In this document: piece by piece, positions 39,658 to 64,000 of the stretch
How the letters are laid out: each line of letters begins with the position of its first letter
Position numbering within the stretch: position 1 is the stretch's first letter
DNA from: a virus
Taxonomy: Duplodnaviria; Heunggongvirae; Uroviricota; Caudoviricetes
Strand: one strand, 5' to 3'
DNA length: 64,000 bases
IMG/VR virus record: IMGVR_UViG_3300048854_000273
Coordinates: 43,413-107,412 of that record
Program-made: the position numbers and the translations under genes
The notes under the pieces: generated by a model
Told to the model about the DNA's origin: nothing
The model's input: only the letters and a program-made list of their open reading frames with translations
The model's database searches: none

Positions 39658-39671
39658 AGTCAGTTTTTACT
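39658..39671 (+). promoter_or_regulatory. motif AGTCAGTTTTTACT
   Basis: between the nrdB stop and the lipoprotein gene; followed by leader hairpin 39613-39630. Confidence 0.55.
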
Positions 39672-48582: not shown

Positions 48583-48596
48583 AGTCAGTTTTGACT
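48583..48596 (+). promoter_or_regulatory. motif AGTCAGTTTTGACT forming the whole spacer between the SleB-like stop and the sbcD RBS
   Basis: minus-sense read: TAG-TGTAGAT-AGTCAAAACTGACT-GGAGGAATC-ATG. Confidence 0.65.
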
Positions 48597-53947: not shown

Positions 53948-53961
53948 AGTCAGTTTTGACT
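53948..53961 (+). promoter_or_regulatory. motif AGTCAGTTTTGACT
   Basis: 29 nt upstream of the GTG at 53918 (107 nt upstream of ATG 53840) of the SSB gene. Confidence 0.6.
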
Positions 53962-53979: not shown

Positions 53980-55014
53980 TTACCCGTTTGATACTCGTGC
54001 AGCGTTCACAGCCCGATTTGCCAGATTTTCGCGTTCGGCCTGGGCCGCCATGATGCGTGCCTGTCCCTTGCTCTCGTCGCGGCGATCGGCACCCAACTGG
54101 ATGATCATGTCGCGGCGATCCGACAGCGCGAACACGCAGGACTTCGCCACCGCGGCGATCGATTCAGCCTCGATCACAAGCTGCTTGCCTGCAATCCAGC
54201 GCGGGTCGATCTTGACCATGTTCTCGACAGCCTTCTCGGTCACCTTCTCGCCCGACGTCACGAGCGCCTTGCGATGCTCGTCGTAGATTTTTGCCTCGCG
54301 CACTTCAAAGCGGGTCTTGATGCTTGAGGCCTGCGCTTCCGCACGTGCGGCACGTGCACCGTAAAAAGCACGCAAACTGGCTTGCTGCATCATGCAATCG
54401 TCCAGATTGTTTTCCGTGACCTGCATGTCTGCTTTAAAGCTGTCCACGTCGATGTAGTAGTCGAGCGCAGCCGCTGCTTTCTTCGCCTTCGCGATGGCTG
54501 CGACTTCCTCTTCCTCTATCGATGACTTCGTCGGGGCCGGTGCGGGTGCGGGTGCTACAGGCTCAAGTTCTTCTGCGGGCGGGTGCGGCATCGTCAAGGT
54601 CTCGGCCGGTTCGGTCGATTCTTCGTCCCACGGTGGCGTGGCGGGCGGTGCGACTGTGCCCGATTCGATCTCCGCTTCGAGCGCCGCGAGTTCGTCGTCC
54701 ACGTTCGATTCGTCAGCGACCGGTGCTGCCAGCGGAGTCGGTGCGGGAGCCGCCAGCACGACCGTCGTGCCCTCTTCTTCCAGAACGATCAGATCCTCAT
54801 CCGACAGCGTCAGATCGGCTTCAACCGGGGTAGATGCCGGTGCCTCATCAAGTTCGTCCAGACCTTCCAGCTCGTCACTGGTCGGCTCGGGTGTGGCAAC
54901 GACGGGGGTCTTCTTTGGCGCGGGGGCTGCGGCCGGCACCCCGGTCGCTTCTTCCAGCTCCAGCATCAACGAATCGAGTTCATCATCCGGCACCGGGATT
55001 TCGGGGGTTGTCAT
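53980..55014 (-). CDS. hypothetical protein, acidic Pro/Ala-rich N-terminal half plus conserved C-terminal domain (possible recombination mediator)
   Basis: ORF; GAGGAG RBS; sits between the SSB and dnaE genes. Confidence 0.45.
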   Translation of the reverse strand: MTTPEIPVPDDELDSLMLELEEATGVPAAAPAPKKTPVVATPEPTSDELEGLDELDEAPASTPVEADLTLSDEDLIVLEEEGTTVVLAAPAPTPLAAPVADESNVDDELAALEAEIESGTVAPPATPPWDEESTEPAETLTMPHPPAEELEPVAPAPAPAPTKSSIEEEEVAAIAKAKKAAAALDYYIDVDSFKADMQVTENNLDDCMMQQASLRAFYGARAARAEAQASSIKTRFEVREAKIYDEHRKALVTSGEKVTEKAVENMVKIDPRWIAGKQLVIEAESIAAVAKSCVFALSDRRDMIIQLGADRRDESKGQARIMAAQAERENLANRAVNAARVSNG

Positions 55015-55078: not shown

Positions 55079-55092
55079 ACTCAGTTTTGACT
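55079..55092 (+). promoter_or_regulatory. motif ACTCAGTTTTGACT
   Basis: 6 nt after the dnaE stop; followed by hairpin 55044-55064 then GAGGAG RBS of 53980..55014. Confidence 0.55.
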
Positions 55093-55098
55093 ATTGCC

Positions 55099-58000
55099 TC
55101 AGTTAAGACAATCAGCCACCTTTTCAAATACGGCTGCCAGGATCTCGGCCTTCGATGTGTCGAACAGGATCTGCTGCGCGTTAATGCCGCACACGATGCT
55201 CGCGTCCAACGTCTTGTCGAAGATCACCTTGCCGGCGAGTTCGGCCGTGCCGCCCTTGATGCCCGGCACGAAGTGCTTGATCGACGCCGAGCCAAGCGCC
55301 ACGATCACCGCGGGCTTGATCAGCTCCAGCTCGCGCTGAAGGAAGCCCTTGCAGCCGTTGATCTGGGCGTTCGAGAGGAACTTGTCGCTCTTTTTCGCCT
55401 TGACCAGCGACGTGTAATAGCCCTCTGCCGGATTGAGTCCCGCCTGCTTGATCGCTTCCTTGATGAAGTCGGCCGCATCCCCTTCAAGCATCTTGTCGGC
55501 CTTCTCCTCCTGCCAGCTCGGACAGTCGGACACGACCATGAACTTAACCGTGTGCTTGGCTCGCACAGTCGGGTGTGGCTGACCCGCCAGATCGCAGCCC
55601 TCGCAGTTCTTGTATTCCTGCACGAGGCTGATCACCTTTGCACGCAGGAACGTTTCTTTCAGGTCTGTCGTGCGATCGGCCTTCACGCTGTCGATGATGA
55701 GGCCGCCCATCAGTTCGGTCTGTTCACGGCGTCGGTCCGGGTGTCGCGCAGGTTTTGCCCCTGGTTGCAGCGGCACGAGGGCGCCGACTTTATCCAGCCC
55801 ATCGCGGACCTTGCTGTTGACCTTCGAGCCCTTTGCTTCCGTGATGTTCAGGAACTCATCCATGTCCTTGAACGTGCCGCCGTTCTGGCGCCGCAGCTCC
55901 ACAATGCGCAGTGCCGTGTTCTCGGAGATACCCTTCACGGCCGAGAACGGCGCGAGCAGGTGGTTGTCGTCGGGAATCGTGAAGCGCTCGCGCGACAGGT
56001 TGATATCGGGCGGCAGCACTTCGATGCCGAACTCACGCGCTTCCTCAACGAGACTCGGCAGCTTTTCTTCCTTCACGATCGACATGCAGGCGGCGAAGTA
56101 TTCCGCCGGGTAGCGCACGCGCACCCACATCGTCCAGTAGGAGATGAGCGAATACTCCACCGCGTGCGAGCGGTTGAAACCGTAGCCTGCAAAGGCTTCG
56201 ATCTTGTCGAACAGCTTGCCGGCGGGGATTTCGTCCATGCCCGACTTGGCGAGACAGCCGTCGACCCACTTCTGTCGCATTTCGGCCATCTTGTCCTTGT
56301 CCTTCTTGCCCATCGCTTTGCGCAGGTGATCCGCTTCAGCGCGCGTAAAGCCCGCCAGATCGACCGCCACCTGCATGACCTGTTCCTGATAGACGATGAC
56401 GCCGTAGGTGTCCTTTAGCGCCGCCTCCATGTTCGGATGATCGTAGTAGACAGACTTGGCACCTTGCTTGATCTGGATGAAGTCGTCCATCAGCCCCGAG
56501 TCCATTGGACCTGGCCGGTAAAGCGCGGTCGCGGCGGTTACGTCCTCGAACGTGAGCAGCCCACCCATCGCGAGATTGCGCAGCAGTGCCTTCATGCCGC
56601 CCGAGTCGAACTGGAACACGCCGGTTGTGTCACCCTTGCCGAACGCAGCCATAATGTCTGGCTCCTCCAGCGGCAAGTCCAGGTAGTCGATTTTCTTGCC
56701 GTGCCGCTCCCCGATGTAGGTCTTGGCAATCTCCAGCACGTCGAGCGTGGAGAGCCCCAGAATATCCATCTTGACCAGGCCCCAGTCCTCGACGACGCGC
56801 TTGTCCCAGTTCACGACCGGCGACTCGCCGCGCGTTTCAACGACTGCCCGGTTGATCAGCGGCTCGCCTGCGACAACCACACCGGCTGCGTGCTGCCCGA
56901 ACGAACGCATGGCCCCTTCGAGCTTGAGCGCATGGCCCCAGACCTCCGGGTGGGTGTCACGGAACTTCTCCAGGTCAGCAACCGCCTTCGCCGCTTCGGT
57001 GAGCGTGAAGGAGTTGCCGTGCTCTTTCGGCACGAGCTTGGTCGCGGCCAGGTCCAGGTTCGACAGACCCCACACGCGCCCCGTGTCGCGCAGCGCCGAT
57101 GCAGAGGCGAGCGTCGAGAAATTGGAGATGCCGGCGACGCGGTCGGCGCCGTATTTGCCGGTCAGATATTCAATCACCAGATGGCGCTTGCTCGACATGA
57201 AGTCCAGGTCAGCATCGGGCAAATCCAGACGCTCGGGATTGATGAAGCGCTCGAACAGGAGGTTGAAGCGGATCGGATCCACGTCCGTGATGCCGAGCAG
57301 ATACGCAACGAGCGAGCCGCCGACCGAACCGCGGCCTGGCCCGACGATAATGTCGTTCGCCTTCGCCCACATGACAAGGTCTTCGACCAGCAGGAAGTAG
57401 CCGGCGAAGCCCATTTTCTTGAGCACGCCCAACTCATACTGGAGCCGCGTCTTGTATTCAGGCATGAGCGACACGGGCGGCAGATAGCCGAGCACCGGAT
57501 ACGTGAAGCGCCGCTTCCAGCCCTCAATGCACTTCCTGCCAAGCGTGACGAACTCGTTCTCGGCCATTGCGGGCAGCGAGACCGGGTGTTTCTTGAACTC
57601 GTAGCCGCACTTCGCCGCGAGCTTCTCGACGTTGGTCAAGCCAGCCAGCCACAGATGTGGCTCATGCACGCCGTAGAACCGCTTCACGCGTGTGGCGGCC
57701 GCCTTCAGCCGCTCGATGACGTGCTTGGGCTCGGCGAAACCAAAGTCGCGCACGTGCTGGATGGGTCGATACGAGACGTCCATCTTCGTGTTCGACGTCA
57801 CTGCGCCCAGCACGTCCAGGCTGTCCGCGTCGGTGTTCTCGCGATAGAGCGTCGGATAGTTGACGATCGTCTGGACTTCGTGGACGCGCGCGGCCTTCAG
57901 CGCTTCGGCGTTCAGAGTGTCGAATAGCGGCGTGTTGATCGGGACGAGCTCCACCAAAAAGTCGTCCCTGAACGTCATGTTCAGCCGTAGCGCGATATCG

Positions 58001-58464
58001 AACGCTTCCGGGTGGTGGAACAGGTTGAAGAAGTCGCCCGTTGTCACCACGACGCCTTCGAGCTTCAACACGTCCTCGAGCCCGACGCGCGACACGTAGT
58101 AGAAGTAGTCCGGCGAGTTCGCTTTCGACAGCAGCTTGATCAGTCCGGCGACACCGCGCTCGTCCTTCGCATACACCTTCAGGGTGTAGCCGCGGTTCGG
58201 CTTTTCCTTCTCGCCCGACGCCTTCGGCGGCTTGCGGTAGGTGGGATCGTCGACCACGCGCACCGCACATCCGATGATCGGCTTGATGCCGGCTTTCTTC
58301 GCGCGCTGCGAGAAATCGACCATCGCGTGCAGGCTCATTTCATCGACGAGGGCGACGGACTCGTAGCCCAGCTCCTTCGCCTTGCTGACGATATGGTCGA
58401 CCTGCAAGAGTGACTTGCCGATCGAAAAGTCGGAGCGCACCGCGAGGGCATGTCCGAGATTCAT
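55099..58464 (-). CDS. dnaE: DNA polymerase III alpha subunit (DnaE-type, PHP + Pol-beta-like palm)
   Basis: 1121 aa; N-terminal PHP domain; conserved DnaE blocks (GPGRGS, LLFERF, YRPGPM). Confidence 0.9.
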   Translation of the reverse strand: MNLGHALAVRSDFSIGKSLLQVDHIVSKAKELGYESVALVDEMSLHAMVDFSQRAKKAGIKPIIGCAVRVVDDPTYRKPPKASGEKEKPNRGYTLKVYAKDERGVAGLIKLLSKANSPDYFYYVSRVGLEDVLKLEGVVVTTGDFFNLFHHPEAFDIALRLNMTFRDDFLVELVPINTPLFDTLNAEALKAARVHEVQTIVNYPTLYRENTDADSLDVLGAVTSNTKMDVSYRPIQHVRDFGFAEPKHVIERLKAAATRVKRFYGVHEPHLWLAGLTNVEKLAAKCGYEFKKHPVSLPAMAENEFVTLGRKCIEGWKRRFTYPVLGYLPPVSLMPEYKTRLQYELGVLKKMGFAGYFLLVEDLVMWAKANDIIVGPGRGSVGGSLVAYLLGITDVDPIRFNLLFERFINPERLDLPDADLDFMSSKRHLVIEYLTGKYGADRVAGISNFSTLASASALRDTGRVWGLSNLDLAATKLVPKEHGNSFTLTEAAKAVADLEKFRDTHPEVWGHALKLEGAMRSFGQHAAGVVVAGEPLINRAVVETRGESPVVNWDKRVVEDWGLVKMDILGLSTLDVLEIAKTYIGERHGKKIDYLDLPLEEPDIMAAFGKGDTTGVFQFDSGGMKALLRNLAMGGLLTFEDVTAATALYRPGPMDSGLMDDFIQIKQGAKSVYYDHPNMEAALKDTYGVIVYQEQVMQVAVDLAGFTRAEADHLRKAMGKKDKDKMAEMRQKWVDGCLAKSGMDEIPAGKLFDKIEAFAGYGFNRSHAVEYSLISYWTMWVRVRYPAEYFAACMSIVKEEKLPSLVEEAREFGIEVLPPDINLSRERFTIPDDNHLLAPFSAVKGISENTALRIVELRRQNGGTFKDMDEFLNITEAKGSKVNSKVRDGLDKVGALVPLQPGAKPARHPDRRREQTELMGGLIIDSVKADRTTDLKETFLRAKVISLVQEYKNCEGCDLAGQPHPTVRAKHTVKFMVVSDCPSWQEEKADKMLEGDAADFIKEAIKQAGLNPAEGYYTSLVKAKKSDKFLSNAQINGCKGFLQRELELIKPAVIVALGSASIKHFVPGIKGGTAELAGKVIFDKTLDASIVCGINAQQILFDTSKAEILAAVFEKVADCLN

Positions 58465-58501: not shown

Positions 58502-59218
58502 TCAAGCAGACGCAGGGGTTAGCGTCAGGACACCGTCGTTTTCGACGGCAATCTCGAAGCGCGTGAAAATCGGCCAAGCCATGCCCACGTGGGACGCGGC
58601 GGTCGAGTCGCCCCAGTCAAGCGCGTTGACCAGGCACTGCTTCAGAGCGCTTCTAGTCGTGCCACCCGCGATGAGTGCGTCACAGATAACGCGCATGAAT
58701 TCTGGCTTGATCTGAGCGAACGGATTCACGCCGGCCGGTAGCTCTTTGCGCATTGCGTCTAGCAAACCGTGCTTGATAAAGCGCAGCGCGTGTTCGGCGG
58801 ATTTCTTCGGCAGGGTCGCGATCAGGGTGGCCTCCGCCTCGCTCACGCCGAAGGTGACGGTCTCCACCTTCGTGCGGCGCTGGACCTGCGCGGGGACGAC
58901 CGGCCTGGCCGGCTGGGCCGCCACCACCTCGTCATCTTCCTGGGCGGCCATCTGTTCGGCCACCGATGGTGAGGTTGTCTGTGCAGCCGGCGTCGTGCGT
59001 TGGATCACCTGCTTCTTGCGGGCGGCCTCGTGCCGACGCAGCAGGTCGCTCACGTTGATCGTGGCCTGGATTGCTTCAAGGGTCTTCACCGAAGCGCCAG
59101 CACAGTCACCAAAGGCGCCACACTGCTGGCACACGCCAGAGTCGTGGCTGAATACGCTAGCAGCAGCAAAGCAGGCCGGTGCGGCGGCAGGTGCGGTGAC
59201 GTTCTCAAACAACTGCAT
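58502..59218 (-). CDS. hypothetical protein with N-terminal H-x4-C-x2-C cluster (possible zinc anti-sigma-like partner)
   Basis: SHDSGVCQQCGAFGDC; immediately downstream of the sigma-factor gene. Confidence 0.4.
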   Translation of the reverse strand: MQLFENVTAPAAAPACFAAASVFSHDSGVCQQCGAFGDCAGASVKTLEAIQATINVSDLLRRHEAARKKQVIQRTTPAAQTTSPSVAEQMAAQEDDEVVAAQPARPVVPAQVQRRTKVETVTFGVSEAEATLIATLPKKSAEHALRFIKHGLLDAMRKELPAGVNPFAQIKPEFMRVICDALIAGGTTRSALKQCLVNALDWGDSTAASHVGMAWPIFTRFEIAVENDGVLTLTPASA

Positions 59219-59227
59219 GGTGATTCC

Positions 59228-59875
59228 TCAAAGAGTGTCGATAATGCGGCGCACTTCCTGGGCCGCTGCTGCCATGTCGCGCGTGCCGACGTCCTTCTTC
59301 ACCAGGCGAATGAACTTGCAGATGAAGCCGATGTTGACGCCGGCGGCGCACCGCGTGCGAATGCCGATGCTGCGGCTGTAATCGCAGTGCGCCTGGTTCT
59401 TCCTGATCTCCTCCAGCAGCGCGGCCGGTGGGCTCACGATCCACTCTACGATCAGCGCCGCGAGCGGGCTCATGCCCTGCACCGCCTTCTCGATCTGGAG
59501 CGCGCACTGTTGCCGGTCCAGAATTTCCTCCGGCGTCATCGCATCGCTCGGGACGGTTTCTAGAAGGTTGGAGCTTTCGTCGTCGCCCATGCCCTCGATG
59601 CTGAACACGCCGTTCTCGCGCTCCTCCTCACTGCTCTCAGCCTTGCGGTTGATGCGGTTGTAGGCTGCGGTGCCGAAATATGTGGTGAAGGCGAAGCCCT
59701 TGCTCGGGTCAAACTTCGCGTGCGCCAGCAGGAAGGCTTCACGAACGTCGGCGAACACGTCGTCGTATTGGGTGGAAGCCTCCAGGTCCAGGAGACGCCC
59801 ATAGCACTTGCGTGCTATCTGGTGGACGAATCCCAGATTCCCCTGGTAGCACTCGACAATGTCGGCGCTATACAT
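59228..59875 (-). CDS. RNA polymerase sigma-70-family factor (regions 2 and 4; ECF-like size)
   Basis: region 2: YQGNLGFVHQIARKCYG...FDPSKGFAFTTYFGTAAYNRINR; C-terminal HTH-like region; 215 aa. Confidence 0.65.
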   Translation of the reverse strand: MYSADIVECYQGNLGFVHQIARKCYGRLLDLEASTQYDDVFADVREAFLLAHAKFDPSKGFAFTTYFGTAAYNRINRKAESSEEERENGVFSIEGMGDDESSNLLETVPSDAMTPEEILDRQQCALQIEKAVQGMSPLAALIVEWIVSPPAALLEEIRKNQAHCDYSRSIGIRTRCAAGVNIGFICKFIRLVKKDVGTRDMAAAAQEVRRIIDTL

Positions 59876-59881
59876 GGTCGA

Positions 59882-61066
59882 TTAAGCCCCGAAGATGCGT
59901 TGCGAGAGGCCGTCGCAGACTTCGCGATCCACTTTCGACAGCTTGTTGATGAAGGACAGTTGCAGCCCCTGGCGCCACGAACCGCGCTTCATGCCAATCT
60001 TTGCCGCATAGATCAGCGTGCGCGGCGAGATCACGTCCGAAATCTTCGCGCCGTCGTAGGCTTCACGAACCAGCGAGGCGAAGTCGACCAGCTTGTCGGC
60101 GTCGTCCGAGTGGAGACCCACACGCTTCTGCAGGATCAGGCTCTCGAAATTTTTCTTCATGTATTGCTTGTGGATGACCATGCCGAAGCGGTCATAGTTG
60201 GCGCTGTTCTGGAGTGACGTGCCCTGATAGAGGCCCGTTTCGTCGCCCGAACCATTGGTGTTGCCGGTCGCGACGAAGCGGAAGTTCGCGTGCGGCTTGA
60301 TGATCCGGTTGGCAGCGTCCGCTTCCTTGATGATCAGCGGCTTGCCTTCGAGAACGGCCTGATACACCGACAGCACAGACGGCAGCGCGAAGTCGTATTC
60401 GTCGGCGGCATAAACCCAGCCGTGCTTCATGGCGAGCGGCAACGGTCCCAGCTCGAACTGGGTCGAGCCATCTTTCACCGTCCACTGCCCCACGATGTGA
60501 CTTTCTTCGGTGTTGACGGTGTGCTGGACGCGCATCGTGGCGCGACCGGTGCGGGCGCAAATCTGGTCATAGAGCTCCGACTTGCCCGATCCCTTGTGGC
60601 CCCAGACATAGCACGGGATGGACATTTCGAGCGCGAGGATCACGTTCTTCAGCTCGTCCACGTCATAAACGTAGTCGTCCGAGATCACCGGCACCATGTC
60701 GGGATCAGCCGGCGTGGCAATCACGCTGATCGGAATCGGCTCTTTCTTCGAGGACAGGGCGGCAGCGACCTTGCCCAGACCAAACACTTCATGGAACGGC
60801 GCCTTCGTCACCGTGCCGGCGGGCATCAGGGCGGTCACGCTGGCAACCGCGGTGCCTGCCATTGCAACGGGGGCGGGGGCAGCCGCCGCGCGCTCTTGAC
60901 GCTTGCGTTCGAGCTGGGCGAGCGCGAGGTCCGAGAGCAACGGCGCAGCGGGGTATTGCGCCTTGTAATCATCCACCGAAACTTCAGGGTGATCGTCCTT
61001 CAGATGCTTCTGCATCACGTGGACCTGCGCACCGCAAATTTCGCACTTGATCTTGGCATCGCTCAT
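59882..61066 (-). CDS. CobS/MoxR-like AAA+ ATPase (AAA_5) with N-terminal zinc finger
   Basis: Walker A GHKGSGKS, Walker B VYAADEYD; N-terminal CEICGAQVHVMQKHLKDDH. Confidence 0.65.
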   Translation of the reverse strand: MSDAKIKCEICGAQVHVMQKHLKDDHPEVSVDDYKAQYPAAPLLSDLALAQLERKRQERAAAAPAPVAMAGTAVASVTALMPAGTVTKAPFHEVFGLGKVAAALSSKKEPIPISVIATPADPDMVPVISDDYVYDVDELKNVILALEMSIPCYVWGHKGSGKSELYDQICARTGRATMRVQHTVNTEESHIVGQWTVKDGSTQFELGPLPLAMKHGWVYAADEYDFALPSVLSVYQAVLEGKPLIIKEADAANRIIKPHANFRFVATGNTNGSGDETGLYQGTSLQNSANYDRFGMVIHKQYMKKNFESLILQKRVGLHSDDADKLVDFASLVREAYDGAKISDVISPRTLIYAAKIGMKRGSWRQGLQLSFINKLSKVDREVCDGLSQRIFGA

Positions 61067-61152
61067 GTTTTTCTCTCCGAGAGTGAGTTATTACTGACTG
61101 CAGCAACGTTGCTGCGATATGAGAATGATAAAGAAGACCGCTCGGGAATACT

Positions 61153-61166
61153 ACTCAGTTTTTACT
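61153..61166 (+). promoter_or_regulatory. motif ACTCAGTTTTTACT
   Basis: between the cobT-like stop and the cobS-like start. Confidence 0.5.
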
Positions 61167-61189
61167 GTTCTCAAGCGGCAAAAAAAATG

Positions 61190-63202
61190 TCAGCCAATCA
61201 GCAGCGAGCGCAACTCCTTCATCACGCGTGAGGGCAGCTCCGACACGTTGTTAATGATCATGTGGCGCTTGTAGAACTGTTTAACGGCCTCAGACTGGAT
61301 GCCAATGCCGACGACGCGCACCCCTGCCTTCTCGATGTTCACCACCGTGTCCTTCAGGTGCTGGAATACCGCCGCACCGCCGCCATCACAGGCGGGTGCG
61401 CCATCGGACAGGACGATCATGATCTTGCCCGCCTCGCGACGCTGCATGAGGCGTCGGGCGGCAATCTCGATGCACTCGCCATCGACGTTATTGCGCAACG
61501 TGTTGCAGTTCGGCAGCCAGCCAAAGCGATTGCGCACTTCGGTGGACTGCATGCGCTCGTTGAAGGATTTCAGGATCGGCATGTAGAGGCTTTCCGTTCG
61601 GCTGAACCGCTTGCCAAGACGCTTCTCCTCCTTCTCCATCTTTTCTTCATCCACGATGTTGCCAGTGGTGAAGCAGATGGTCTCGGACTTGATGTTCAGG
61701 CGATCGAGGACCGAGGCGAGCGCATATCCCGCCTGCGCCGCCGTGTGGATCTTGCTACCCCACATCGAGCCCGACATGTCGATCACCAGCTCCACCGCAA
61801 CATCCTTGCTGGTTGACTCATGCTTTTTTCGGAACACACGCGCGTCGCCTACTGCCAGCCGTGACAGGTTGCCACTGTGCAGACGTCCGGAGCGGCGGCC
61901 GTTCTCCCAGACAGAGAGCGAACGCGCACTGATGGCACGCTCCAGATCCTTCTGGAGTGGCGCGACCATGTGGTCGACCTCGTCACTGAGCTTCTTGGTC
62001 ATTTCTGGCTTGAAGCCGGAACCCAAGTGCAGCGGCTCGATGACGTCGTTGTCCTTCGTGTAGACCAGGTATTGCGCCCCTTTCGCCGCCTCGATCGCGT
62101 CGTTGGTGATCAGACGTGACATGGTTTCGTCAAAGCCGTTGGCGGTTTCCTTGTCGAGAGCGGCGAGAAAACCCGACGAATCACCGGTGTTGACGTCCTC
62201 GTCATCCTCCCCCGACGGCTCATCGTCGTCGGATTCCGACTCAGCATCGTCCTCACCGTCCTCACCTTCTTCATCTTCCTCGCCGGATTTGGCTTCTTCA
62301 CCTTCCCCGCCGGCCCCGCCGCTTTCCTCGCCCTCGCCCTCGCCCTCGCCCTCGCCCTCGCCTTCTTCGGAGCCTGAGCCGGACTTGCCACCCGGCAGAC
62401 CTGCGCCGGATTCCTCCTCGCTCTCCTCGTCGCTTTCTTCCTCCGACTCCGGCTTTGGCCCGCTCTTTCCCATCGACGGCTTGCCGGAGCTTGCCTTCGA
62501 CCGGGATTTGGCTTTCTTAGGCTTCGGAGGCGCGGCACCGCCGCCAGCCCCACCGCTCGTCGCACGACCGAGCGCGGTCATCACTTCCTGTGCGAGCGTC
62601 ACGGCGTCGCCTGTGGTCGGGCAGTTTGCAATCTTGGACGCGAGGTGCTCGATCTTGTCGACCTCGTCGGCGATCGCTTCCTGCATGTCCGGGTGATCAG
62701 TGAGCCACTGCTTGAAAATGTGCTGTCCGGCCATCGCTCGCAGCGCCGGCACCATCACCAATGCCTTGACGCCGTTCACGTCGCCCTTCTTGGCAGCTTC
62801 GCGAATCTGCGGCTTGACGTATTTGTCTAGGAAGAACTGGCCCGTCACGGCAATGTTGTGACCCGAACCCTGGAAGCGCTTGGCCATCTCCCGCTCGATA
62901 CGGGTGTCCTCGATGATGTTGACCATGTTGTGCAGGCTCGGGTCGCGAATCGCGTTCATCGCCTTGAAGTCGGTGAACAGGATATGTGCGACCTCATGGT
63001 CGAGAAAGCCCTGAATTGCCGCGCATAGCTCATCGCTGGCGTTATCCGGCAGATACGGCAGATTGACGTGCGCGGGTTCACCGTTGGCCCCAGGCTGGAC
63101 GTATGCGCTGATGCCGCGCTGCGTGACCGTGATGCCCTTGCCCGCCAGCATCTGCGTAATCGTGACTACCGCCTCACGCAGAACAAATACTCGTTCGTTC
63201 AT
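61190..63202 (-). CDS. CobT-like von Willebrand factor A domain protein with internal acidic (EGEGEG) region
   Basis: C-terminal VWA MIDAS VIDMSGSMWGS; central poly-acidic block; paired with the upstream AAA+ gene. Confidence 0.65.
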   Translation of the reverse strand: MNERVFVLREAVVTITQMLAGKGITVTQRGISAYVQPGANGEPAHVNLPYLPDNASDELCAAIQGFLDHEVAHILFTDFKAMNAIRDPSLHNMVNIIEDTRIEREMAKRFQGSGHNIAVTGQFFLDKYVKPQIREAAKKGDVNGVKALVMVPALRAMAGQHIFKQWLTDHPDMQEAIADEVDKIEHLASKIANCPTTGDAVTLAQEVMTALGRATSGGAGGGAAPPKPKKAKSRSKASSGKPSMGKSGPKPESEEESDEESEEESGAGLPGGKSGSGSEEGEGEGEGEGEGEESGGAGGEGEEAKSGEEDEEGEDGEDDAESESDDDEPSGEDDEDVNTGDSSGFLAALDKETANGFDETMSRLITNDAIEAAKGAQYLVYTKDNDVIEPLHLGSGFKPEMTKKLSDEVDHMVAPLQKDLERAISARSLSVWENGRRSGRLHSGNLSRLAVGDARVFRKKHESTSKDVAVELVIDMSGSMWGSKIHTAAQAGYALASVLDRLNIKSETICFTTGNIVDEEKMEKEEKRLGKRFSRTESLYMPILKSFNERMQSTEVRNRFGWLPNCNTLRNNVDGECIEIAARRLMQRREAGKIMIVLSDGAPACDGGGAAVFQHLKDTVVNIEKAGVRVVGIGIQSEAVKQFYKRHMIINNVSELPSRVMKELRSLLIG

Positions 63203-63274: not shown

Positions 63275-63288
63275 AGTCAGTTTTGACT
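63275..63288 (+). promoter_or_regulatory. motif AGTCAGTTTTGACT
   Basis: preceded by hairpin GCGCTC-acgg-GAGCGC (63255-63272). Confidence 0.55.
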
Positions 63289-63347: not shown

Positions 63348-63575
63348 CTAAGAGAGCATTGCCGCAGTGATGATTACCGCTCCTCCACCGTCAGTGTTGA
63401 CCATCATCAACACCCCGAGAACAGGGTGAATCACTTTACTGATTGATGCTGAGCCCAGATCGATCGCGCCGACCGTCTCGCCTTCGCCGAGGACTTCTGA
63501 AAAGCGATCCAAGTCGACCATCTCACCGAATGCATGTTGTTTTGCACTATTGGCCATAGAACCCACCGTCACCAT
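63348..63575 (-). CDS. small hypothetical protein
   Basis: ORF, weak. Confidence 0.3.
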   Translation of the reverse strand: MVTVGSMANSAKQHAFGEMVDLDRFSEVLGEGETVGAIDLGSASISKVIHPVLGVLMMVNTDGGGAVIITAAMLS

Positions 63576-63626
63576 CTGATTCTCCAGAAACGTCGAACAC
63601 GTTATGTTGTCTTACGCACACATTAT

Positions 63627-63640
63627 AGTCAGTGTTGACT
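63627..63640 (+). promoter_or_regulatory. motif AGTCAGTGTTGACT
   Basis: read directly. Confidence 0.5.
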
Positions 63641-63728
63641 ATCGAAAGCAAATAGCCGAAACCGCTAGACGTCCCGCACCCGGTCGGGCGAGAGTCCTTT
63701 GCCTGCGGCGTAGCTCTTCAAACCATAT

Positions 63729-63742
63729 TGTCAAAATTGACT
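63729..63742 (-). promoter_or_regulatory. motif reverse-orientation variant TGTCAAAATTGACT
   Basis: read directly. Confidence 0.45.
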
Positions 63743-63774
63743 GTTACCCAAGTAATTGGTAGTCTGCGCGTGAC

Positions 63775-63788
63775 AGTCAAGTTTTACT
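63775..63788 (+). promoter_or_regulatory. motif variant AGTCAAGTTTTACT
   Basis: read directly; 75 nt upstream of the (+) gene ATG. Confidence 0.4.
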
Positions 63789-63793
63789 GATTG

Positions 63794-63838
63794 GCGTCTA
63801 TAATCGACGCAAGAAATCAATTGCGGGACGTCCCGCAA
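63794..63838 (+). promoter_or_regulatory. inverted repeat GCGTC-TATAAT-c-GACGC (63794-63810) and 18-bp perfect palindrome TTGCGGGACGTCCCGCAA (63821-63838) upstream of the (+) gene
   Basis: TATAAT at 63799-63804; half-repeat GACGTCCCGCA also at 63668-63678. Confidence 0.5.
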
Positions 63839-63862
63839 GACCCAAACAAGGAGGTTTATAAA

Positions 63863-64000
63863 ATGGTAAAGAAAGATACCGCCATGTCGGTGGCAGACTA
63901 CTTCTCGAATCAGGTCGCAGCCAATCAGAAAACTCTTGCCGGCCTAAGCAATGACATCGGTGGCGCACTCCGACCCAATGTTCTGTCGATGATCTCCAAC
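63863..64000 (+). CDS. partial CDS running off window end (MVKKDTAMSVADYFSNQVAANQ...)
   Basis: strong RBS AAGGAGG 8 nt upstream. Confidence 0.5.
   Translation, partial: MVKKDTAMSVADYFSNQVAANQKTLAGLSNDIGGALRPNVLSMISN

Follow-up and report, generated by a model that had tools for sequence, protein, structure and literature searches.

An intriguing characteristic of this phage is the presence, within an early gene block, of a sigma-factor gene followed directly by a gene for a cysteine-containing protein. This raises the question as to what the second protein does for the first, and which of the two, if either, reads AGTCA-N4-TGACT, a 14-bp palindrome situated ahead of nearly every transcription unit. 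The initial annotation had proposed a phage sigma/anti-sigma pair, with a possible zinc anti-sigma factor, reminiscent of the ZAS kind, as second member and the sigma factor as reader of the genome-wide motif. Its coordinates and sequences for the locus, which lies in the 64,000-nt stretch of DNA analysed here (the window), were correct on re-checking. The five genes of the block all lie on the minus strand:

61190-63202, minus strand: CobT-like VWA protein (Pfam CobT_C, E 2e-42; phrog_1576)
59882-61066, minus strand: CobS-like AAA+ (MoxR-type) ATPase (Pfam AAA_5 and CbbQ_C; phrog_249)
59228-59875, minus strand: sigma-70-family factor, 215 aa (Pfam Sigma70_r2; phrog_351)
58502-59218, minus strand: predicted Cys4 and winged-helix protein, 238 aa, here called the partner (phrog_3616)
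55099-58464, minus strand: DnaE (DNA polymerase III alpha), last gene of the block (Pfam PHP, DNA_pol3_alpha, finger, HHH_6 and UDG, the last a UDG-superfamily domain at the C-terminus)

The CobS-like gene, the product of which scores far under the cut-off for TIGR01650 in an NCBIfam search, is the first of the transcription unit holding the sigma gene, and the sigma gene indeed begins 6 nt past its stop. CobT, CobS, sigma, partner and DnaE form a conserved early block in a family of temperate phages and phage-plasmids (roughly 105-160 kb) whose hosts are Beta- and Alphaproteobacteria and which are carried by Rhizobium, Ensifer, Ralstonia and Paraburkholderia. Most complete contigs measure about 105-122 kb and this phage 157 kb; its host type is Burkholderia/Ralstonia (Burkholderiaceae-type). 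Relatives occur in Paraburkholderia and in Ralstonia pickettii, where CP104381 has the prophage at about 0.99 Mb. The phage collection that we searched holds no isolated phage of this Betaproteobacterial branch, and the sole megablast match of the locus there is a 270-bp stretch of CobS. An Rfam search of the window gave no match.

ORF 59228-59875 is a genuine but divergent sigma-70-family factor. Sigma70_r2 (PF04542) scores 27.8 bits on it (cut-off 24; E 2e-6) and also matches 60 of 60 relatives, which bears out the region 2 described earlier; the protein further matches the sigma-factor family phrog_351 (E 1e-9), and the family profile finds SigA, FliA and RpoS in the PDB (best E 8e-12). With 32.4 bits against a cut-off of 42.9 for TIGR02937 (sigma70-ECF, NCBIfam), the threshold for an ECF (group 4) factor is not reached. 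Two domains can be distinguished:

59615-59854, minus strand: sigma domain 2, residues 8-87, with region 2.2-like DDVFADVREAFLLAHAKFDP and region 2.3/2.4-like GFAFTTYFGTAAYNRINR
59234-59533, minus strand: C-terminal helical domain, residues 115-214, with a sigma4-like fold

The C-terminal helix-turn-helix region claimed previously holds in so far as the structure model confidently predicts a domain of five helices there, but neither Sigma70_r4 nor r4_2 yields a match at E<=1 among 60 relatives, and hhalign aligns the family with E. coli RpoE over region 2 and not region 4. The insertion in this domain, a helix (151-169) with a loop, amounts to about 30 aa, and the last helix bears a conserved R-E-V/I motif. 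The protein combines a canonical core-binding, -10-reading domain 2 with a putative domain 4 that is divergent and insertion-bearing, and presumably steers the host's core RNA polymerase towards promoters of the phage. The sigma factor itself is ordinary: phage sigmas are well known, and orthologues in RHEph10 (gp045), RHph_N1_10, RHph_N1_15 and B1VFA (B1VFA_132) are already annotated 'RNA polymerase sigma factor'. These Rhizobium phage proteins sit in the same CobT-CobS-sigma-hypothetical-DnaE block, are of similar length (about 210-215 aa) and likewise have Pfam region 2 as their only detected domain, whereas their identity to the sigma of this Burkholderiaceae-type phage is 20-28%. A literature search found no functional study of this sigma gene, and the RHEph10 and B1VFA records carry no functional notes.

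The partner is depicted by the structure model and the alignment together as a two-domain protein, a Cys4 metal domain and a winged-helix DNA-binding domain separated by a disordered linker:

59102-59173, minus strand: invariant cluster C16-x13-C30-x2-C33-x5-C39 (invariant alignment columns)
58514-58846, minus strand: C-terminal helical and winged-helix DNA-binding domain, residues 125-235 (predicted fold)

The cluster is preceded by P14 and flanked by F17 and F23, and C-x13-C-x2-C-x5-C occurs in 172 of 186 family sequences, the other 14 being N-terminally truncated; through these four invariant cysteines the N-terminal domain is predicted to hold a metal centre. The C-terminal half is modelled with confidence as a three-helix bundle plus beta-hairpin wing. 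In its putative recognition helix W202, T206, A207 and H210 are near-invariant (LxW..TAASHV), the last three being kept even in Rhizobium phages. The partner matches the uncharacterised phrog_3616 as a full-length profile (E 2.7e-53, residues 8-233), as do 39/39 relatives, and the family comprises 660 cluster representatives at E<=1e-3. An NCBIfam search gave no match, the family profile found in the PDB non-significant ribosomal S27 and RING matches alone (E >0.05), and the two matches of a BFVD fold search are both uncharacterised viral proteins. A tblastn search of the phage collection with the partner was empty because the Rhizobium orthologues are too divergent.

ZAS anti-sigma factors (RsrA, RslA, ChrR) carry HxxxCxxC in their anti-sigma domain (PMC2877774), and the partner resembles them in adjoining its sigma gene downstream and in having a CxxC near the N-terminus. 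The H-x4-C-x2-C cluster on which the ZAS assignment had been based is present as the string SHDSGVCQQCGAFGDC, but what is conserved are the four cysteines: the histidine, 5 residues before the CxxC, occurs in 51 of 172 homologues (30%). At the ZAS position, 4 residues before the CxxC, 113 of 172 sequences have Asp, and the ten commonest residues listed, which cover 169 of the 172, do not include His. With this different spacing, a four-cysteine ligand set, no zf-HC2 match (Pfam) at E<=1 in 39 family members and a winged helix, the partner is not a zinc ZAS anti-sigma factor, and the interpretation as a sigma/anti-sigma pair is borne out in part.

The two genes meet at this junction:

59219-59230, minus strand: sigma/partner junction, a GAGGAA ribosome-binding site (Shine-Dalgarno) running into the TGA stop, with the ATG 9 nt past the stop

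In relatives the genes overlap (ATGA, GTGA, TGATG) or are <=10 nt apart, and the partner lies directly downstream of the sigma gene at 12/12 loci examined. The genes are translationally coupled and co-inherited. This downstream, co-translated arrangement is the classic sigma/anti-sigma layout and, together with the strict co-inheritance and a cysteine-rich, potentially redox-sensitive cluster, could suggest an anti-sigma factor of an undescribed, non-ZAS type, the cysteine domain of which would sequester the sigma until a redox or metal signal sets it free. We consider this unlikely: HxxxCxxC and a zf-HC2 match are absent, the N-terminal model (two long helices and two short ones of 3 and 4 residues) is not a four-helix anti-sigma domain, the partner has no transmembrane or sensor domain, and more than half of it is a conserved winged-helix domain that an anti-sigma factor does not need.

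The order CobS-sigma-partner-DnaE is kept in all loci sampled, homologues down to E 1e-22 included (the linkage to DnaE is seen in 11/12 loci; in the twelfth, the contig, L010, stops about 150 nt past the partner gene). Since the adjacency of CobS and DnaE is equally strict, gene order alone cannot single out the sigma factor as the partner's target. The partner could instead be a replication or DNA-metabolism protein, such as an origin/iteron binder or an Fe-S accessory of DnaE, that would neighbour the sigma gene merely because the whole early block is syntenic, with the sigma working alone. C-x2-C-x5-C [4Fe-4S] sites are common in DNA-processing enzymes (EndoIII, AddB, Cas4), some initiators contain winged helices, the window is devoted entirely to DNA and nucleotide metabolism, and the link to DnaE is as tight as that to the sigma gene. 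On the other hand, the stop/start overlaps are specific to the sigma gene, whereas on the DnaE side, with a distance of 37 nt here, the loci show either a gap, which ranges from 0 to 290 nt, or one more small gene, and the palindrome is scattered before transcription units and does not form origin-like clusters, except in the control region described below. We regard a role in replication as rather unlikely.

With regard to the metal, the C-x2-C-x5-C spacing matches that of [4Fe-4S] regulators such as WhiB and FNR and suggests a [4Fe-4S]-type centre, though zinc would suit four cysteines just as well. In Pfam and PHROGs, the best among the weak matches of the partner family are Wbl families (Pfam Whib: best E 0.024, in 4 of 39 members, not significant), and hhalign against three Wbl sequences places C30, C33 and C39 in register with C37, C40 and C46 of WhiB1 (P 0.0014). 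This match is weak (25 columns, 17% probability), and we treat it as resemblance, not homology. The Wbl transcription factors, [4Fe-4S] proteins found in Actinobacteria and actinophages, bind to region 4 of sigma-A (PMC6282962, PMC6954389); they feature a G[V/I]WGG turn after the last Cys, and the first Cys spacing of WhiB1 is 27 residues, C9 to C37 (PMC6282962). The partner shares with them four invariant cysteines, C-xn-C-x2-C-x5-C, with an identical C-x2-C-x5-C core, aromatic residues beside the first Cys and the genetic association with a sigma factor. It differs in its first Cys spacing of 13 residues, in lacking the turn (0/186 family sequences), in having twice the length, with a winged-helix domain in place of the basic tail, and in its proteobacterial phage setting. 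The layout also recalls FNR, a CRP-family [4Fe-4S] regulator with an N-terminal C-x2-C-x5-C and a C-terminal winged helix that reads a palindrome and contacts sigma. Unlike in FNR, no cNMP-like sensor barrel was detected in the partner (model and Pfam), and the fourth Cys lies upstream of the cluster instead of about 90 residues downstream; the two proteins have no sequence similarity. From the two-part phage promoter systems (T4 gp55 plus gp33, T4 MotA/AsiA, SPO1 gp33/gp34) the present one differs in that its sigma keeps a C-terminal domain. Searches of Pfam, PHROGs, NCBIfam and the PDB matched the partner to neither gp33 nor MotA nor AsiA, and we know of no sliding-clamp link for this system.

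We tentatively propose, as quite possible and as our preferred reading, that the partner is a DNA-binding metallo-cofactor for this sigma. Its cysteine domain would attach it to the sigma or the holoenzyme, much as Wbl proteins dock on sigma-A region 4, and a dimer would bind DNA via the winged helix, acting as activator or repressor, with AGTCA-N4-TGACT as the obvious candidate site. A more specific version is unlikely: the partner would stand for a widespread family, with more than 600 sequence clusters, of sigma-associated iron-sulfur transcription factors of proteobacterial phages, functional analogues or very distant relatives of actinobacterial Wbl, that dock on the divergent region 4 of a dedicated sigma and contribute promoter recognition by a winged helix reading the palindrome.

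The palindrome (AGTCAAAACTGACT) has 35 matches against 3.3 expected. Among the inverted repeats of the window, and of five other loci (L003, L005, L006, L007 and L009), AGTCA-N4-TGACT ranks first or joint first, and B1VFA has the version AGTAA-N4-TTACT. Around the block it occurs as follows:

63576-63861, no strand: divergent control region, flanked on one side by a small conserved gene (63348-63575, minus strand) and on the other by the gene for a CI-like Xre repressor
63277-63288, minus strand: palindrome copy, 74 nt upstream of the CobT start
61155-61166, minus strand: palindrome copy AGTAAAAACTGA, 88 nt upstream of the CobS start
55081-55092, minus strand: palindrome copy just past the DnaE stop, upstream of the next gene

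There are zero copies between CobS and the end of DnaE, and three in the control region (minus-strand 5' ends at 63640, 63742 and 63788). Many copies end 11-30 nt from start codons and must therefore overlap the core promoter or 5' UTR, which suits a repressor or an activator. The arms vary independently, without compensatory change (in one variant, A stands at position 3 and the G at position 10 is unchanged). This makes an RNA hairpin less likely as a reading of the motif, as does the weak folding of many copies (-2.4 to -3.3 kcal/mol). The centre, AAAC, is asymmetric and conserved, and in this phage 25 of 26 copies are co-oriented with the genes, which is unexpected for a plain dimer operator. 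Upstream of the palindrome we found no asymmetric box in the window (10 sites vs 9 in shuffles). In B1VFA, GCGCTATAA lies upstream of the palindrome.

That the sigma holoenzyme itself would read the palindrome as its promoter, as first proposed, we regard as very unlikely. In its favour, the motif has a direction and stands before almost every transcription unit, the sigma gene lies in the first early operon, so that a takeover of all later transcription is conceivable, and a divergent region 4 could go with an unusual promoter architecture. Sigma factors, however, recognise two asymmetric elements, -35 and -10, that lie 16-18 bp from each other, unlike 5-bp inverted arms separated by 4 bp, and a 14-bp palindrome fits a dimeric HTH protein better. 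Moreover, the half-sites stay conserved from Beta- to Alphaproteobacterial phages while sigma identity drops to about 20%, the sole invariant residue of the sigma's putative recognition helix is E207, and the palindrome precedes the sigma's own operon too.

A serious rival reader is the CI-like Xre repressor, the gene for which runs off the window, the lysogeny module being visible at the window edge alone. The palindrome would then be its operator in P1-C1-style dispersed repression, and sigma and partner would read other sequences. The three copies in the divergent region adjoin the repressor gene, the palindrome overlaps TATAAT-like hexamers, and the repressor with its HTH is conserved in every relative keeping the palindrome, Rhizobium phages included. 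Repressor and partner are conserved alike, so the phyletic pattern fails to separate these two candidate readers. The conserved, co-oriented asymmetric centre and the occurrence of the RHEph10 motif before tail genes too argue against the repressor, and the winged-helix partner may be the reader instead; overall, the repressor as reader appears rather unlikely to us.

The new point is not the sigma factor but its fixed companion, a large unannotated family with an Fe-S-type Cys4 site and a winged helix, and a mis-annotation is corrected: a CxxC encoded beside a sigma gene is not enough to call a protein a ZAS anti-sigma factor. If sigma and partner act as a unit, they would constitute a sigma/co-factor system in proteobacterial phages, parallel to WhiB with sigma-A or T4 gp55 with gp33, and would provide a testable handle on the timing of gene expression in these temperate phages and phage-plasmids. 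Should the iron-sulfur reading also be true, phage transcription would hinge on a sigma made up of two proteins, with oxygen, NO or iron as signals to which it may respond.

All five genes that the initial annotation had grouped into one operon were recovered by an ORF check at their stated coordinates on the minus strand, and the sigma gene begins 6 nt downstream of the CobS-like gene, as claimed there. The block and the nearest copies of a palindrome (AGTCA-N4-TGACT) dispersed through the window are laid out as follows:

63277-63288: palindrome copy upstream of CobT
61190-63202, minus strand: CobT-like protein (ORF check)
61155-61166: palindrome copy upstream of CobS
59882-61066, minus strand: CobS-like protein (ORF check)
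59228-59875, minus strand: sigma factor, 215 aa, starting 6 nt past the CobS stop
58502-59218, minus strand: partner protein, 238 aa, starting 9 nt past the sigma stop codon
55099-58464, minus strand: DnaE (ORF check)
55081-55092: palindrome copy just past DnaE

A motif scan of the window found no copy from the CobS start to the DnaE stop. Since copies flank this stretch and none lies inside it, CobS, sigma, partner and DnaE look like a single transcription unit, in which the ribosome-binding site of the partner gene (GAGGAA) overlaps the sigma stop codon. The gene content of the window is confined to DNA and nucleotide metabolism (SbcCD, ribonucleotide reductase, thymidylate synthase, helicase); genes for a gp32-like protein, a 5'-3' exonuclease and RecA are found in relatives and on a contig that encodes an identical sigma protein. 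An identical sigma protein is encoded on a 156,713-bp JGI metagenome contig.

We regard the 215-aa protein as a true member of the sigma-70 family whose domain 4 has diverged. Region 2, recognised in the initial annotation, is matched by Pfam Sigma70_r2 at 27.8 bits, above the curated threshold of 24, and the model also matches 60 of 60 aligned family members (best E 2e-11). Against the PDB, the family profile retrieves SigA, FliA and RpoS chains (down to E 8e-12), in alignments that span KFD-P-x-x-G-x-x-F-x-T-Y, the core of regions 2.2-2.4, and resume at an 'LSP' helix, the counterpart of the region 4.1 start. In the AlphaFold2 model (mean pLDDT 84.5), an N-terminal domain (1-87) is joined through a disordered acidic linker (88-114) to a C-terminal domain of five helices (115-214). 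The C-terminal helix-turn-helix region proposed earlier is only partly borne out, as region 4 is not detectable by sequence: none of the 60 family members matches Sigma70_r4 or r4_2 at E<=1, the hhalign alignment with RpoE ends after region 2, and the NCBIfam sigma70-ECF match is below cut-off and extends only to model position 125 of 165. On visual inspection, a conserved R-E-(V/I) in the last helix recalls the recognition helix T-R-E-R-I-R-Q, and an extra helix and loop (~151-181) are inserted ahead of the putative helix-turn-helix. The sigma factor is of an already known kind and not new, because its orthologues in Rhizobium phages RHEph10 and B1VFA and in the RHph phages are already annotated as sigma factors.

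Relatives occur on contigs of ~105-120 kb and, as part of the chromosome, in Ralstonia pickettii and a Paraburkholderia. In R. pickettii the block adjoins an integrase, an excisionase-like HTH protein and an Xre repressor beside uvrC, and this copy is therefore a prophage. More distant are RHEph10 and B1VFA (115-122 kb), along with numerous replicons of ~115-120 kb from Rhizobium, Ensifer and Sinorhizobium, of which at least one carries a plasmid label. Linkage was sampled at 12 loci, comprising the window, RHEph10, B1VFA, seven contexts with homologues of 38-61% identity and two that match the family profile at only E 1e-22. In 12 of 12, the gene directly ahead of the partner is a Sigma70_r2 gene, and a CobS-like gene lies farther upstream; no gene intervenes at the sigma-partner junction, where stop and start either overlap (ATGA, GTGA, TGATG or 17 nt) or are spaced by 7-10 nt. 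Across this sample, co-occurrence of the two genes is obligatory and translationally coupled. DnaE follows the partner wherever the contig reaches, sometimes after one small ORF. A DNA-binding role for the partner in replication, with no tie to the sigma factor, is an unlikely reading.

Several other features of the block were recorded. The linkage of CobT and CobS to the sigma and DnaE genes is as tight as that of the partner. One relative (L006) carries a GIY-YIG/NUMOD3 homing endonuclease between CobS and sigma (L006 4671-5348); in another (L003) an HNH homing endonuclease interrupts the DnaE gene, and the DnaE gene call of a third (L011) is truncated to 782 aa. DnaE of the window (Pol III alpha) has a C-terminal uracil-DNA-glycosylase-superfamily domain (residues 972-1070). 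The CobS-like AAA+ ATPase begins with a C-x2-C...H-x4-H finger (residues 1-60; window 60887-61066) that weakly matches Ros/MucR (E 0.005), as it does in a distant relative (L010), and the CobT-like VWA protein contains a long acidic, Gly/Ser/Glu-rich low-complexity insert (residues ~225-335; window ~62200-62530) including EEESDEESEEE and GEGEGEGEGE. Just downstream of DnaE (53980-55014), a 344-aa protein is disordered and rich in Pro/Glu/Ala over its N-terminal half and conserved over its C-terminal half (phrog_4969, of unknown function); its position ahead of the gp32-like SSB is kept in all relatives.

The interesting remainder of the locus is the partner, a member of an uncharacterised, widespread Cys4 and winged-helix family locked to the phage sigma factor. 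The family numbers 660 cluster representatives at E<=1e-3 (431 at E<=1e-10), almost uniformly of 170-250 aa, with no fusion to sigma among the 150 best matches listed. We found no functional annotation in the sources searched: PHROG 3616 is of 'unknown function', NCBIfam and PDB gave no match, and a BFVD search returned uncharacterised proteins only. One metagenomic member of 458 aa (P0222) has two tandem Cys4 domains and, after them, ~300 aa of unrelated C-terminal sequence; this architecture shows the Cys domain to be an independent module. In the structure model of the partner (mean pLDDT 82.6), a small N-terminal domain with two long helices surrounds the cysteines (pLDDT 60-90), and a disordered variable linker (~76-115) leads to a very confident C-terminal domain (pLDDT 96-98).

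The initial annotation had found an H-x4-C-x2-C cluster in this protein reminiscent of zinc anti-sigma (ZAS) factors, a group defined by the motif HxxxCxxC (PMC2877774). What is invariant in alignments of 32 and 39 homologues is four cysteines, C16, C30, C33 and C39. C-x(11-14)-C-x2-C-x5-C occurs in 172 of 186 family sequences (exactly x13 in 163 of those 172), and the other 14 are N-terminally truncated. The histidine is present in only 51 of the 172, 5 residues and not 4 ahead of CxxC; at the true ZAS position Asp stands in 113 of 172 and His is not among the ten commonest residues listed. None of 39 family members matches Pfam zf-HC2 at E<=1, and the ZAS interpretation is refuted on these defining features. 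That the partner is an anti-sigma factor of a novel kind strikes us as rather improbable. The cluster also differs from most zinc ribbons, which have a two-knuckle pattern, in that its single CxxC has one isolated cysteine on either side, 13 residues ahead and 5 behind. The C-x2-C-x5-C spacing is found in FNR, EndoIII, AddB and Cas4. It is also the [4Fe-4S] ligand spacing of WhiB-like (Wbl) proteins, e.g. C9, C37, C40 and C46 of WhiB1 (PMC6282962). Among weak matches of family members, WhiB is the most frequent both in Pfam (Whib, 4 of 39 members, best E 0.024) and, independently, in the PHROG library ('WhiB-like' families, 3 of 39 and 2 of 39), and hhalign places C30/C33/C39 in register with C37/C40/C46 of WhiB1 (P 0.0014, probability 17%). 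The likeness is resemblance and not membership, because the second universal signature of Wbl proteins, G[V/I]WGG, occurs in 0 of 186 family sequences, the scores are below significance, and the partner is twice the size of a Wbl and differs in its DNA-binding module.

On the coding (minus) strand the genome-wide motif reads R-A-Y-AGTCAAAACTGA-C-T-a-T, and its 12-mer core is present in 17 perfect copies, with 35 matches at <=2 mismatches vs 3.3 expected:

754-63740: 35 palindrome sites, e.g. 53950-53961, 48585-48596 and 39660-39671

Among the strict copies, 25 of 26 are co-directed with minus-strand genes; the only one on the plus strand stands ahead of a gene on that strand. The motif is an inverted repeat, (AT)AGTCA-N4-TGACT(AT), and neither in the window nor in five Betaproteobacterial relatives is any 5-bp inverted repeat commoner than AGTCA-N4-TGACT. 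Its half-sites are conserved from Ralstonia prophages to Rhizobium phages (TAAGTAA-N4-TTACTTA in B1VFA, A[AG]T[CA]A-N4-T[GT]A[TC]T in RHEph10); the 4-nt centre is fixed as AAAC in the window phage and variable among relatives. Variants in the arms are uncompensated, with A at position 3 in 6 of 26 copies opposite an invariant G10 and AGTAA left arms mixed with TGATT right arms in RHEph10, and many copies are only weakly stable in RNA folding. We therefore read the palindrome as a protein-binding DNA site for a dimer, with degenerate half-sites one helical turn apart. Copies are almost always intergenic and end 11-90 nt ahead of start codons, so they must overlap the core promoter or 5' UTR. 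More than half run into a TATAAT-like hexamer (TGACTATAAT), including, here and in relatives, at the promoter of the first rightward gene beside the CI-like repressor. Tail genes of RHEph10 are also preceded by the motif, which is thus not confined to one temporal class. A dimer-type DNA motif stands at nearly every transcription unit.

As to what reads it, the sigma factor proposed in the initial annotation is a poor candidate and very unlikely to do so itself: an inverted repeat with 4-bp spacing is ill suited to a sigma factor, and the half-sites stay constant while sigma identity drops to ~20%. Good candidates are two conserved HTH proteins, the winged-helix partner and a CI-like Xre repressor encoded at the window's edge:

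63348-63575, minus strand: small conserved gene, divergent from the repressor
~63862 onwards, plus strand: CI-like Xre repressor gene, running off the window

Three palindrome copies, one fused to a perfect TATAAT, lie in the 286-bp stretch between these genes, and 63576-64000 resembles a lysogeny switch. The repressor is conserved in Rhizobium phages too, so phyletic patterns do not separate it from the partner. Ownership of the palindrome by the repressor, which is compatible with other readings, has a modest chance. A simple operator model does not account for the conserved, co-oriented asymmetric centre. Repressor homologues (H20-H24, 'putative repressor') also occur in ~108-kb Escherichia and Klebsiella phage records (Cyrano, CMS-2020a, PhiR41_1), in which tblastn did not detect the sigma gene. 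In B1VFA (1-50000), a strongly conserved asymmetric box, GCGCTATAA, precedes the palindromes by 2-4 nt (18 of 24 sites vs <=11 in shuffles) and is the kind of element that sigma domain 2 would read; an equivalent box is absent from the window. The B1VFA palindromes abut the Shine-Dalgarno sequence, and the arrangement resembles a -10-only promoter with an operator or 5'-UTR element downstream.

The locus pairs a genuine sigma factor with a protein that carries a Cys4 site of Fe-S-type spacing and a winged helix. Wbl proteins, described as confined to Actinobacteria and actinobacterial phages, act by binding region 4 of sigma-A (PMC6282962, PMC6954389, PMC13013590). We tentatively propose, as a plausible reading, that the partner is a DNA-binding metallo-cofactor of the phage sigma factor. 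It would act as Wbl proteins do on sigma-A region 4, or as FNR does at class II promoters, and may itself read the palindrome; through it, phage transcription might be made responsive to redox or iron status.
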